A DNA stretch of 64,000 bases, from NCBI RefSeq assembly GCF_054482595.1, contig NZ_JBTHVH010000004.1; one strand, written 5' to 3'. The first letter of the stretch is position 1, and each line of letters opens with the position of its first letter. Of the stretch, positions 6,001 through 12,000 are shown piece after piece. Position numbers: made by a program. This DNA is from a plasmid.

Positions 6001-9000
6001 AGAGGGTTATGGTGACACTATTAACATTGGAAGGATCTACTAGTCCAAAACCAAAACCATTGCCTTTTGCCGCATGTTTCTTTGCATAGTTGTATAAGTA
6101 CTCCCAGAGTTTAGGGGAGAGGATGTATTTACTATCTACGCTCGGATCCAGTAAATCTGAGAGAGAAGGGCGCTTGTCCGGATAAAAGTCTTTAATGTCT
6201 CTCAGAGTAAAACCGTCTTTCAGACGTAGGTCGCGGCGAAAACCAATAAGGACGATACGTTCACGGTGCTGGGGTCGGAAATGACGGCCATCGATGACTT
6301 TAGGATCATCCGCGCCCGTGCTTTCGCTGTTTGCGACGTCGTAGCCAAGCTCATCGAGCGTTTTCATGATGATGTTAAAGGTATTACCCTTATCGTGACT
6401 CTTCAGATTTTTTACGTTTTCCAGAACAAAAATTGCAGGTTGTTTTGCCCGGATGATCCTGGCCACATCAAAGAAGAGCGTACCCTGAGTGTCGCACTCG
6501 AAACCGTGTTTGCGACCCATAGAGTTCTTTTTACTGACACCGGCGATGCTGAATGGCTGGCATGGAAATCCCGCAAGAAGAACATCATGATCCGGGATAG
6601 AGGCATCGATAAATTTGTATGCCTCGTCATCAGTAACCTCGGGCCGGTTGCTAAGAGTGATGTCACGGATGTCTGAATTGAAGCGGTGCTCGTTCTCATC
6701 GCAATACCAGTTCGCCCGGTAAGTACGGCTGGAATAAGTATTCCATTCGCTCGTGAAAAGACATTTACCACCGATGGCATCAAATCCGCTTCGCAGTCCA
6801 CCTATCCCTGCAAACAGATCGATAAAGCTAAAGTGCCTGTCCTCATAATCAGCAGGTCGTGAAGGTATTAAAGTCTGTAGATAGCGTCCATCTGCGATAC
6901 TCAGCTCACAATGCTCAGGTATGCATGTAACCTGACGTTTAAGGGATGCACGGGACCAATTACTGCCATTTTCATCATTTAATACCTGAGCCAGATATTT
7001 CAGGTCATAAATGGTCGAAGCTGTTAACAAAGTTTTGTGGATCAGAGATGGTGTTTTATCCACATCATTCAGGTCTGTCTCAAGATCATGAGTGTAACGT
7101 TTCATCCAAACTCTCTCAGGAATAATATCTTTGAGATAGATTAACACGCTTAATTTGGATTATTTTTTGGTTCAGGTTCTAAATTTATTGTGATTATTCT
7201 GCCTTTAAGTTGCAAAAAGATTGGTTTTAAGCCCGCCCATGAAATAATGACTTGTTAAAATACTGCCTGTAAATAGGCTTGTGGATACATGTCTGTACTC
7301 AACAAATCAAGGTGAAATGATGTTTTTTTTAACAAAGTTACTTTTGCCCATCATGATTGTTGTATTCCCAGTGGCGTCCTGGGGGAACTCAACAACTTTT
7401 GAGGCAAAGGTGGTTAAGATTGTTGACGGTGACACCATAACTGCGTTGGATGCTCAAAACACAACCATCAAAATACGGATGTATGGTATAGACGCTCCTG
7501 AATCTAAACAGGCTTTTGGCCAAAAAGCAAAACAGGCCTTAACCACAGCTATAGCAACTAAAATCGTTACCGTGATAGACCATGGTACGGATATCTATGG
7601 CCGTATGTTAGGTACCATCTGGTTAGATGGATATGATATCAATGCCTCTATGGTGGACAGTGGATATGCGTGGGTTTATCGGTTCGAAGATAACGCCATT
7701 GTCCCTGGCTATATCAAATATGAATCCGCAGCACAAAAGGAGGCAAAAGGGTTATGGGCAGACACCAACCCTGTCCCACCATGGCAGTGGAGACAGGCAA
7801 ACGAAAAGCCCAGAAAGGTGAAAGAGAAGAAATAACCATGATGAAAGAGCCTCATCCGTTACTTCAGTTGGTACTAAACGATTCCGGTCGTCTAACCATG
7901 CCTGTTTATTATAGAGATCAACAGTATTGCCCGACTTGCCTTACAAAGGTGTTGAAGAGTGAGGATGGAAGTTTGGCGCACCTCGGGGAAATAAATCAAA
8001 ATACATGTAGACCTTCTATTTCAGTAGTTGTGACAAAAGCAATTATTGAAATGTTATGTGACGGGGAAAAAATATATGTAAATCCAATACGACACCGAGG
8101 CCGGGTGCTGGCACCCTCAGTAATTTTTTCTCCCGACACTCACACTTTCAAACCGTTTATAAATACAGACTATCAGCCTGTGGGAGCAAACTGGAAAAGT
8201 GAAAAGGGATATAAACTCGGTCTGTTTTATCTCAAAGATCGAGCCAACTCTATCAATAAAGAGGAATTTGATTTCATTGCCGTTATAGACCCTGAGGCAA
8301 TGCAGAAAGAATTTATTTCGGCCTGGTCTGAGGTTGATGAAAAAAATCCATTGGAAACGCTGAAGCAGATCTTACGATCTAAAAACAACTCTTCTTTATG
8401 GGTAAAATGGCCTGGCAAAATTGAGCATGCGCAAAAAGGAAATTACAACGAAAATTACTGGTTCGATTATCAATCTGATAATCAGGAAGTGAACTGTACG
8501 GTCTCTGTTGTAGGTATCGAAGGTAACAGTTCCGGTGAGACAATTTATAGATTGCAAACTTTGCTAAAGCGTAAGCTCAATGAATATCAACTGGTTCGGT
8601 CTTTAGGGACTATTATGCTTCTTGATAATACCGGGAATATGATTCCATCAAACCATCCTTATTTTGAAGTCATCTCAAAAGCATGTATAAATGGAGTGCG
8701 TGACTTTGTTCGTCAAAACCCGTGGGTAGTCTGACGGTCAACTATAAAGCATAATATAATTAGTAATAACAAGGAACAGACATGAATGAAAACTCAGTAA
8801 TCTTAATAAGTTTATTTTGGTTTTTTTTGGGATCGAGTGTTGTAGCTGGTTTTATGGATGCATCATTATATTGCTGGATTTTTGCAGCCATAAGCGCATT
8901 GTTTCTTCTTTCGGTGATACAAACACCAAAGGAGTTAACGGTATCTATTAGTCATATGACAAGCAAAACGCTGATCTCAAAGACAGATGATGGATACACA

Positions 9001-12000
9001 TTTAGCATTTCACCTTACGGAGACGGGTACCGCTTATCAGTCTCGCCTGAAAATCGTCACAATGGTACCCAAAGCTTTGACGGCTGGTTCCCACGTTTTT
9101 TTTCCGAACCACAGTATGCCAAATCATCTTTAACTAAATTTCTCGGTGAGTCCTTAGTATGGGAAGAAGATTCAAGTAATGCTCTATGAGATTACTTATT
9201 ATAAATTTTTCTATTAATCTCCATGGAGTGATATATGAATTTGGCCTATTTTTTATTTTTGTCTATAACTGTTATGCTTACGAGCTTTATTATTAAATCA
9301 CTTGTCGTATTGGTAAAGTTCAAATTACTTCGTGATGAACGTCTCGAATATACCAGCAATAAAAATATTGATGAGATGTACGATTTAATGAATGCGAAGG
9401 AAGAAATCCTCATAAGGCATCATAAGCAGATGTTGGCATTGCATCTTTCACTATTAATATTCGTTCTATTTATTGCTTACATTTACTAAAAATAATTTTA
9501 TTCAACATTTCAACAAAGGGTTTTCAATGGAAAGCTTCGAAACTGAACAAATGATTCAATATGCTTTCTACATAAATATCGTAATAACGACTGGTTTGGC
9601 ATGGTTTTGCTTGCGGTCAGGATTGCATTACAATTTTTTCAGAAAAGCAGAGAGTGCCAGAACAAAAGGGCTGAGTAGTACCTCTACTGAACACGGTCCA
9701 GCAATAGTGAGACTAAAGAAGCTACAAGCATTAGTAGATTTTATTAGTAACTGTGCTTTTCTAATCCTTTCAATTGGCACAGCTTATATTTTGTATGTTT
9801 GGAGCCACAGTTAACTCATACGAGGTAACTTCGGCAGGTAACAACTTCTAATGCAGGACTTTAATAACTCTAAGGGATTCTACATGAAAAAAGACGATCT
9901 AATTACGCGTTGTAAATTACTTAAAGGCGAACGCGATGAGTCTATCTTTACCATATTAATTGGGATAGTAGTAAAGCTGGGGCTGGTAGGCCTGGCATTC
10001 TATCTGTTGCTTGGTTCCACGATTGATTGGTCAAGCTGGAAAACTTATGCCGCCATGTTGATCTTGGGAGCATTTCTCTAAAATCTTGAACCTTTTTTCA
10101 CTCATTACAAGCCATGACCTAGTGCGTAGATCATACGATCTTTAAACCTTATGTCATTGATTTATAAGTACATATAACAAAGATTATGTTAAATACTGTA
10201 TGTATGTACAGCATCAACAGTTGCCCCCCTCATATTGAGGTAATTGCTACATTCATACCACTATTCTTCTTATAGTATCGACATCCTGAATTATTGCACC
10301 CTACTGCTTTGTCTTTAGCTGTTCCGAATTAAAATTCATTGCTCAATTTGGATCACATGACGATCAGCGTATTCCTTTGCTTTATCAAAGTTAAGTTTTT
10401 AAAACATAAGATATGTAATGACAAATTCTCAATCTGATTTTCCTTTGAACGATCAAAATTTTCAGGCAGATTTGCTGAAAATCAAAAAGGTTTTCGCCGA
10501 CCTTATAACGCAGGCATCAGATGGTAAGATACCCATAAGGTCTTCTCATGTACACGGCTTACACCATTTCGAGGAGCTCTACATCCGGGCAAGAGCAGGC
10601 ATGTGTTCGGTCCTGGGATATCCGGTCATGGTTGTTTCAACTATCTCAGTTAAAGAGCCCGGCACAGGCATTTTTAGAGCGCTTCTTGCAGAATTGAAAT
10701 GTATTGCAGATGAACAAAATTACATTTTGAAAATTGAAAATGTACTGCCTCCCCTATTCCGCAAATACCTTATTCAAGAAGGTTTTGTTTTCCCAGGTGA
10801 ACCTTGGATGTGTGGTTCCGGCTATTGGTTTAAGAACCCACAAGTACTTCATGAAAATATTGAGTTATTATCTGTTTAAGTCGATCTAACAATTTCACTG
10901 GAGCTAACATGTCCCCGGAATTGGTATCAGACATTGCAAGAGTGGCGCATGAAAAGCTACTTTCAATTTTAACGGAGTGCGGCATAGAGAAGACGGCAGG
11001 CACTTGCCTTTTTGCAAGCTATCTTGTGTGTTATTTAGCAAAAACTAAAGGTCTAGATGCTGTTGTCCGTGGGGGTAACGGTGCAGATGATGGCGGTATA
11101 TTTATAGAGTGTGGTGGCTTTGGCCATTATTGGTGTGAGTTGAATTTCGAAGAAGTGCAATATTATATTGACATCACTTCCGAACAGTTTGGGTTTCATC
11201 CATACATAGTGAAACTCGCCAACGATATAACAGGATGGCCTCGATATATTCCTGGTGATCAGGAAACGGTCGATAGTCATTTAGAACAATTATTACGCGA
11301 CGGCTATACAGAATAGGCTGCGTATACCCTATCGCAGCCTTTCAGGCTCTTAACCCTTGTGACCTGTTAACGGAACCACTCAGGATGACGCTGCCGATCA
11401 ACTTTGATAACCTGCGAATTAAATTCAACGACATCCGCTGGAGTAAGCATTAATTCATCAGGATTTACAATAAATGGTCTTAAAACCACTTCGCCACCGT
11501 CTTCTTTTGCACCGTAGATATTAATAAGAAAGTGCAGTCGTTGATTTCCTTCAGCATTGCGTTGCCATTCTCTAAAAGTCAAAGTTTGTTTAATATAGTT
11601 TGTTAAAAGAAATGCGAATTCAGATTCTTCCGTTTGTGAGATACCGATTTTGTTAGACATTTTTTTTAGTATCTTTCCGAGCATGGACACACAGGCATCT
11701 AGACTTAACGATGTTGAAATTTTGGTCGTATTAAAATCCTCCTGCGAAAGTGAAATCATCCATGTATTATCTTTATGATAGTCGGTAATATAAATAAAAT
11801 GAGATGTAAAAGGCGTTGAGTGATTGAACTCTCCTAAGTTCCATCCATACTGACTCACTGTATTTGAGCTAAGTTCTTTGTCGGTAATGTTCATAATTCA
11901 TACCTTTCGATAAAGTCTGTAATGATAATTAGCTATCTCAAAGGACCAGAACAACTCTTGAAATAACCACACTCGAAGAATTTATCATATTGAACACCCC

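Follow-up and report, generated by a model that had tools for sequence, protein, structure and literature searches.

The window analysed here is a 64,000-nt stretch of plasmid DNA (NCBI RefSeq assembly GCF_054482595.1, contig NZ_JBTHVH010000004.1) in which nuc, a gene for a putatively exported nuclease of the staphylococcal nuclease (SNase) family, is followed on the same strand by a coupled open reading frame (ORF) of 298 amino acids (aa), here called ORF2, and by four small ORFs, s1 to s4 (Table 1). A preliminary description, made from the sequence alone, had likened these six genes to a toxin/immunity or exclusion array. This view is not supported: the small genes are not tied to the nuclease, s1 is a chimera, s4 has been hit by insertion sequences (IS), and the PADLOC defence models match neither ORF2 nor the small ORFs. 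The gene that is co-inherited with the nuclease is ORF2, not the small ORFs.

The coupling of nuc and ORF2 is evident from 13 loci that carry a full-length ORF2 member, ranging from 88% identity down to similarity seen only by profile (E 1.6e-14) and covering IncHI2 variants, the IncHI1 plasmids pHCM1 and pB71, one IncHI1B plasmid and metagenomic contigs. In all 13, an SNase gene lies directly upstream of ORF2 with a gap of -8 to +17 nt, and nuc and ORF2 therefore form a conserved unit. In the window, the nuc stop codon (TAA, 7833-7835) ends 2 nt before the ATG of ORF2 at 7838, as previously described. The divergent dcm|nuc arrangement is kept in 12 of the 13 loci, and genes for DUF1173, DUF4942 and a 401-aa coiled-coil protein are kept in most of them; one locus (L014; L numbers denote individual loci) has the nuc-ORF2 pair alone, without the dcm/DUF1173 context. 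PLSDB contains 1466 records with ORF2 and about 1413 with the nuclease (at least 60% identity), a ratio near 1:1. Two weak, partial ORF2 relatives (E 1e-6 to 1e-8) lack a neighbouring nuclease gene. The two genes are also found joined in UniProt H9THC4 (S. Heidelberg), a 'TNase-like domain-containing protein' of 473 aa that ends in a stretch 100% identical to ORF2; the fusion probably arose through an indel of 1 nt, or through an error in sequencing, at the 2-nt junction. In the Serratia plasmid AP028562.1, a deletion links the nuclease gene to the final 50 codons of ORF2.

Nuc is labelled a 'thermonuclease family protein' in RefSeq and matches the Pfam SNase model over its full length (PF00565, E=5.2e-24, model positions 1-107 of 107), while thermonuclease chains in the PDB match it at E about 1e-10. 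The GDTI and YGIDAPE motifs that had marked it as a secreted SNase-like nuclease are present, and DGDT, the R in IRMYG, D-A-P-E and YGR align with D21, R35, D40, E43 and R87 of the S. aureus enzyme. Nine orthologues, the most distant of them 46% identical, all keep the catalytic and Ca-binding positions unchanged. In addition, the N-terminus, MFFLTKLLLPIMIVVFPVASWG, is signal-like by hydropathy, and a signal-like K-K-L-L-hydrophobic N-terminus is kept in 9/9 orthologues, so that the earlier identification holds. The predicted signal peptide spans approximately residues 1-22, leaving a mature protein of about 149 aa with an isoelectric point (pI) of 8.7. The start of the gene had been placed at 7281, but the GTG there is only the mechanical start of the ORF; RefSeq begins the gene at the ATG at 7320, and this codon, preceded by the Shine-Dalgarno-like AAGGTGA, is the likely start. 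The ratio of nonsynonymous to synonymous substitution rates (dN/dS) for nuc is 0.13-0.18. From the signal peptide and the intact active site, we infer that Nuc is a Sec-exported, periplasmic, Ca2+-dependent nonspecific nuclease. The NCBIfam model 'EcnA calcium-activated nuclease' matches Nuc at 68 bits, far under its cut-off of 180, and a literature search on EcnA returned nothing relevant; in PADLOC, Nuc matches the generic 'SNc+LTD' model only (E=3e-11). By tblastn, exported SNase homologues occur on at least 5000 plasmid records, including IncC, Klebsiella IncFIB/HI1B and Acinetobacter plasmids, and our literature search found no paper that establishes their role.

ORF2 belongs to an orphan family. 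Neither it nor its relatives match Pfam, NCBIfam, PADLOC, PHROGs or PDB sequences (in Pfam, none for ORF2 at E<=10 and none for 25 relatives at E<=0.1; in NCBIfam, none for 10 distant relatives), and a Foldseek search of AFDB50 returns uncharacterised family members only. The earlier statement that this ORF has no recognisable domain was thus correct, and only its length, given as 299 aa, needed amending. The family comprises 34 clusters among 5.8 billion proteins, and a profile search of 1.84 billion proteins yields 25 cluster representatives at E<=0.001. The 1466 plasmid records in PLSDB are all from Enterobacterales, and no phage record carries ORF2. ORF2 has a dN/dS of 0.19, a pI of 7.0 and, by hydropathy, no signal peptide, transmembrane (TM) helix or hydrophobic segment; because an export signal is absent, the protein is presumably cytoplasmic. 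An AlphaFold2 (AF2) model built from 25 sequences (predicted local distance difference test, pLDDT, 71; predicted template modelling score, pTM, 0.64) places an N-terminal beta-rich part with a Cys/His motif (C31-x2-C34...H48...C57) before an alpha/beta middle and a C-terminal four-strand meander with a long helix. At the level of the fold, ORF2 may resemble a PD-(D/E)XK enzyme family. P93, W119, S121, K123, G124, E234 and a few other residues are invariant across close and distant members, and a conserved acid is absent both after P93 and at the S-x-K position.

The region that holds these genes is IncHI2 plasmid backbone. By megablast, the 3.4 kb at 7000-10400 match 1144 plasmid records, 674 of them at 99% identity or above and 456 at 95-99%, and almost all of these plasmids are large, conjugative and from Escherichia, Salmonella or Enterobacter. 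The annotated examples and most matches are typed as IncHI2A / MOBH / MPF_F, and the right part of the window encodes RepHI2 together with Ig-like proteins of the type usual in IncHI plasmids; the backbone assignment follows from these matches and genes. In pSTM6-275, the stretch is flanked on one side by the sil/pco copper-silver cluster and on the other by a tet(A)/class 1 integron resistance region.

GC content drops to 0.36-0.39 across 8-12 kb from 0.46-0.48 across the preceding 3 kb (4001-7000), in agreement with the AT-rich stretch noted before. The four same-strand ORFs of 76 to 135 aa described there as having TM helices are present, each with Kyte-Doolittle segments of at least 1.6 over 19 residues, but their limits require revision, as s1 is a chimera, a shorter start is likelier for s3, and RefSeq uses a shorter one for s4. 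For s3, the TTG at 9473 opens a mechanical ORF of 113 aa, and the ATG used by its homologues, at 9527, is more likely. RefSeq annotates s1 as an ordinary 135-aa hypothetical protein. Its codons 1-56 (8782-8949) correspond to the beginning of a gene for a 104-aa membrane protein with three helices, of which the two-TM N-terminus is retained, and the part from 8950 is a gene for a 77-aa soluble protein with its own ATG at 8956. The two parts are joined in frame by an exact 530-bp deletion at 8949|8950 (equivalent to L010 4951-5480), which also removed an 85-aa two-TM gene. This deletion is defined by blastn breakpoints against pMyJU795, pEC476 and L009 (L009, L010, L011), and no microhomology is seen at the junction. 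The intact 104-aa, 85-aa and 77-aa genes are annotated in pEC476 and pMyJU795. Judged by the listed examples, the 674 records at 99% identity or above share the deletion allele and the 456 at 95-99% keep the extra 530 bp.

Purifying selection distinguishes most of these small genes from chance ORFs. The dN/dS values are 0.25-0.32 for the N-terminal part of s1 (s1N), 0.13-0.19 for its C-terminal part (s1C), 0.09-0.23 for s2 (94-98% identical in L006 and L009) and 0.19 for s3, whose identity falls from 92% in L009 to 54% in L006 and to about 35% in IncHI1 and IncHI1B plasmids. Pooled over s1N, s1C, s2 and s3 against L009, dN/dS is 0.24, compared with about 1 or more in most shifted frames; on this measure, s2, s3 and both parts of s1 are therefore real genes and more than chance ORFs. 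The possibility that the small ORFs are random products of AT-rich DNA thereby fails for three of the four, which are conserved in IncHI2 relatives, but not for s4, whose dN/dS of 0.6-1.0 is almost neutral. Found only in IncHI2 relatives, s4 has received four independent IS insertions within about 120 bp in different plasmids, which makes it a hot spot for such elements, and it is probably decaying. In s2 and s4, a shared K-L-L-(R/K)-x-E-R motif, encoded by a 20-nt imperfect direct repeat (9322-9341, 9914-9933) and next to a hydrophobic helix, could be a trace of paralogy among small membrane proteins.

Beyond close relatives, the small membrane ORFs are not conserved as a block with the nuclease. 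The 77-aa family also occurs in the IncHI1B plasmid, pB71 and the distant contig L020, and the distant L012 has a relative of s2 at 2.3 kb downstream of ORF2; in wider searches, the 77-aa and s2 families, both unnamed, were found on IncHI-type plasmids only. The pair is otherwise followed by genes for Ig-like proteins (L022), a reverse-strand SRAP (L012), a TolA-like protein (L014), DUF2726 or S-4TM proteins (L011, pEC476) or type VI secretion (L020). Because the downstream content varies in this way in L008, L012, L014, L021 and L022, the small ORFs do not form an array with the nuclease. In the distant nuc-ORF2 locus of L020, a 154-kb contig, the type VI secretion genes are VipA, VipB, VasE and DotU (8640-12942). 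Defence-type cargo (DUF2726, SMODS-like, S-4TM 'pore-forming effector') lies downstream of the pair in pEC476 (L011 6433-9433) and in L022 (11365-12939), and variable cargo seems to integrate at this site.

Table 1. Features around the nuc-ORF2 pair (positions in the window; a dot marks a feature without strand)
Feature	Coordinates	Strand	Remarks
DUF4942 gene	1808-2626	+	upstream block
401-aa protein gene	2623-3828	+	upstream block
DUF1173 gene	4108-5427	-	upstream block
55-aa ORF	5450-5617	-	upstream block
dcm	5678-7105	-	orphan cytosine methyltransferase; divergent from nuclease gene
dcm/nuclease intergenic region	7106-7319	.	presumed promoter region; AAGGTGA just before ATG ATG 7317/7320
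nuc	7320-7835	+	SNase-family (thermonuclease) nuclease, 171 aa; Pfam PF00565
ORF2	7838-8734	+	298 aa, 897 nt including stop; orphan family
s1	8782-9189	+	chimeric 135-aa ORF (WP_001572392.1); split into two parts by tblastn
s2	9235-9489	+	84 aa; hydrophobic helices at both ends, charged middle, by hydropathy
s3	9527-9814	+	95-aa two-helix membrane protein; homologues start MESFETE
s4	9884-10081	+	65 aa (RefSeq) or 76 aa from 9851; hydrophobic; doubtful or dispensable
IS1D insertion in s4	9888-9896		
IS3 insertion in s4	9972-9974		
ISVsa5 insertion in s4	9984-9992		
IS903B insertion in s4	9996-10004		
ISKox3 insertion	10200-10207		just downstream of s4
153-aa ORF	10418-10879	+	no Pfam/NCBIfam/PADLOC match
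135-aa ORF	10909-11316	+	Cys/His-rich; no Pfam/NCBIfam/PADLOC match

Upstream of nuc, the block at 1808-7105 is kept alongside the pair in IncHI1, IncHI1B and IncHI2 plasmids and in distant contigs. Its 401-aa protein has weak coiled-coil-type matches to LmuB and JetC models (E 2e-7 to 1e-3), and the best PADLOC score of the methyltransferase is as an orphan methyltransferase. DUF1173 has been described as carrying a zinc motif and a PD-(D/E)XK-like domain without an active-site signature (2010 paper, PMC3045609). Since a zinc motif and a suspected PD-(D/E)XK fold are found in both, DUF1173 was compared with ORF2 by hhalign, and the probability of 0.3% shows no relationship between the two families. 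An IS3-family element lies directly before the nuclease start codon, at 7315-7318, in two Klebsiella plasmids. A scan for promoters and terminators found sites no commoner than in shuffled sequence, and Rfam and repeat scans of 6.8-12.6 kb found no credible RNA or repeat element. Downstream, a non-coding gap of 336 bp divides s4 from the 153-aa ORF.

A phospholipase D-family gene lies directly after ORF2 in the IncHI1 plasmid pB71 (L005 6487-7266) and directly after the SNase gene in the Klebsiella plasmid pPMK1-NDM (L029 4067-4885). This family includes the pKM101 Nuc nuclease, and two different exported-nuclease types may be clustered in these two plasmids. In pPMK1-NDM, psiA (plasmid SOS inhibition; L029 1-105) is about 3 kb from the DUF1173|nuclease pair, a hint that this neighbourhood belongs to or adjoins the leading region.

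Taken together, we propose that the locus is ordinary IncHI backbone in which a coupled nuc-ORF2 operon is followed by unrelated mosaic cargo, a reading to which we assign a probability of roughly 55%. In this model, nuc and then ORF2 would be read from the dcm|nuc intergenic region as translationally coupled cistrons. Nuc would be exported by Sec, lose its signal peptide and fold in the periplasm, where it would act as a Ca2+-dependent, sequence-nonspecific DNA/RNA nuclease of the SNase type. It would destroy nucleic acid that reaches the envelope, for example extracellular or transforming DNA, and would never meet cytoplasmic DNA. ORF2 would remain in the cytoplasm as a lineage-specific accessory of the IncHI nuclease that is not universally required. 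A low-confidence guess is that it is a DNA-binding protein with a zinc finger and a degenerate, CoiA-like PD-(D/E)XK fold without the canonical catalytic acids, acting from the cytoplasmic side on DNA or on nuclease production. The four downstream ORFs would stand as separate small genes, in a zone of AT-rich cargo that recombines readily, and would not be immunity or exclusion partners of the nuclease: two intact two-helix membrane proteins, one deletion-made fusion and one ORF that is probably decaying.

Several observations weigh against this model. The localisation of both Nuc and ORF2 was judged by hydropathy and motif reading, and the biological benefit of a periplasmic nuclease is presumed. 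A literature search on nuclease function in IncHI, R27 and R478 plasmids and on IncHI transposon sequencing found no experiment or paper on these genes. Genes of the 77-aa, s2 and s3 families turn up again close to the pair in IncHI1 and IncHI1B plasmids and in two distant contigs, and these families may have a loose functional link to it. Finally, the ORF2 family has no sequence similarity to CoiA in Pfam or NCBIfam, the profiles of PF06054 and its associated N- and C-terminal domains being unmatched.

Among the alternatives, ORF2 could be an immunity protein, that is, a cytoplasmic inhibitor made in fixed ratio to Nuc that shields the DNA of host and plasmid by binding any Nuc folded before export. 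We consider this unlikely. The translational coupling (gap of -8 to +17 nt in 13/13 loci), the lack of an export signal on ORF2 and the fact that, in the loci read, full-length ORF2 relatives never occur without an upstream SNase gene are all as expected of an inhibitor, and ORF2 changes faster, with 52% identity between IncHI2 and IncHI1 where the nuclease has 75%. However, exported nucleases of 50% identity stand beside DUF1173 without ORF2 in the Klebsiella IncFIB/HI1B plasmids pPMK1-NDM and pXHKP502-1, where the next gene after the nuclease is a phospholipase D-family gene or H-NS, and tblastn finds no ORF2 remnant at these two loci or at that of an IncC homologue. By count, 1422 Klebsiella records (by the first word of the organism name) have the nuclease and 141 have ORF2. 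ORF2 is thus dispensable for the orthologous Klebsiella and IncC nucleases, which is evidence against an obligate immunity role. In addition, an AF2 model of a mature Nuc-linker-ORF2 fusion from 12 paired sequences, a weak test, gave a mean pLDDT of 66.8 and a pTM of 0.45, the value expected of two independent domains. Known nuclease inhibitors are small, often acidic proteins, whereas ORF2 has 298 aa, several domains and a neutral pI of 7.0. Moreover, SNase-type enzymes require millimolar Ca2+ and are little active in the cytoplasm. For ORF2, the toxin/immunity reading is therefore weak.

The possible fold of ORF2 suggests a further, more speculative alternative. CoiA, which is cytosolic, begins with a small zinc finger, continues with an atypical PD-(D/E)XK core, in which D95 and E105 are essential, and ends in a long extension; it is reported to resolve transformation D-loops (bioRxiv 10.1101/2024.02.06.579203). 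On the basis of the AF2 model, ORF2 may possess a degenerate and probably non-catalytic CoiA-like fold, an assignment of low confidence that we offer as a lead only. It seems improbable that ORF2 founds a plasmid-specific, CoiA-like branch of DNA-structure-binding proteins and, together with the exported SNase, forms a two-compartment module with which IncHI plasmids control the uptake or recombination of foreign DNA in the cells that carry them. If it did, Nuc would trim periplasmic DNA while ORF2 handled or blocked DNA intermediates in the cytoplasm, and the effect could be anti-transformation, anti-competitor or a help to plasmid establishment.

It is more doubtful still that all six genes make up one cassette, with the small membrane proteins serving as immunity, exclusion or holin-like export partners of the nuclease. 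The genes do share a strand, with short gaps and a Shine-Dalgarno-like sequence ahead of each ORF; s1N, s1C, s2 and s3 are under purifying selection, and members of the 77-aa, s2 and s3 families lie 1-3 kb downstream of the pair in IncHI1, IncHI1B, L012 and L020. However, their set and order vary, with Ig-like, TolA-like or reverse-strand genes in their place in L008, L014, L021 and L022, and, by the listed examples, the majority of records (674 vs 456) carry the 530-bp deletion that fuses two of the genes and loses a third. The near-neutral s4 with its four IS insertions also argues against a functional cassette, as do the lack of any PADLOC, PHROG or Pfam match for the small ORFs and of a lysin nearby, and the Sec signal of Nuc already accounts for export to the periplasm. 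A holin-type export or lysis cassette was considered in its own right and rejected: s2 and s4 end in hydrophobic helices without a charged tail, and no lysin or PHROG lysis family is found nearby.

Least credible is a restriction-modification-like unit in which the divergent methyltransferase protects while nuc and ORF2 attack unmodified incoming DNA: the dcm|nuc arrangement in 12/13 loci and the possible fold-level resemblance of ORF2 to a PD-(D/E)XK enzyme family would suit it, but Nuc is a nonspecific SNase with a conserved export signal, the methyltransferase scores best as an orphan, dcm is missing beside the pair in L014, DUF1173|nuc stands with neither dcm nor ORF2 in the Klebsiella plasmids, and ORF2 has no conserved acids at the PD and (D/E)xK positions. 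Pairing dcm with DUF1173 as restriction and modification partners was put aside as well, as the methyltransferase scores as an orphan and DUF1173 lacks an active-site signature (PMC3045609).

The nuc-ORF2 operon merits attention given the plasmids that carry it. In Salmonella, E. coli and Enterobacter, IncHI1 and IncHI2 plasmids rank among the main vehicles of multidrug, mcr and metal resistance, and the pair is present in about 1,400 sequenced plasmids, always labelled 'hypothetical'. As ORF2 is strictly coupled to the nuclease in one plasmid lineage and absent in sister lineages, it offers a clean genetic handle on the purpose of such nucleases. The point of interest is this uncharacterised, strictly nuclease-coupled gene with its tentative CoiA-like fold. 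Conversely, it would be wrong to treat the small membrane ORFs as an array for defence or immunity, and the 135-aa 'gene' in RefSeq is a deletion fusion.

Comparison with known systems places the two genes differently. Nuc conforms to the staphylococcal nuclease family (PF00565) in its domain, its catalytic Arg/Glu/Arg and Ca-binding Asp residues, its export signal and its small, basic mature protein. It shares with other plasmid SNase homologues a backbone location on large conjugative plasmids, but in Klebsiella and IncC plasmids they are not followed, as nuc is, by a translationally coupled orphan ORF of 298 aa. RP4/RK2 ParB is another plasmid-borne member of the family; unlike in the parCBA-type resolvase operon, no resolvase gene adjoins nuc. 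Barnase/barstar, Anabaena NucA/NuiA and colicin DNase/Im are pairs of a secreted nuclease and its inhibitor, and the gene order is alike, with a secreted nuclease gene followed by a coupled gene for a cytoplasmic protein. However, ORF2 is three times larger than the known inhibitors and not acidic, it is absent beside orthologous nucleases, and no confident complex is predicted. With CoiA, a competence protein of Bacillota, ORF2 has in common a length of about 300 aa, a probable cytoplasmic location, an N-terminal Cys/His motif and, in the AF2 model, an alpha/beta core followed by a C-terminal extension. In contrast to CoiA, it has Ser, Gly or Ala where, by a tentative mapping onto D95/E105 of the S. 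pneumoniae protein, the catalytic Asp (beta2) and Glu (beta3) would fall; it occurs only on IncHI-type plasmids of Enterobacterales, always after an exported nuclease gene, and has no link to competence genes.

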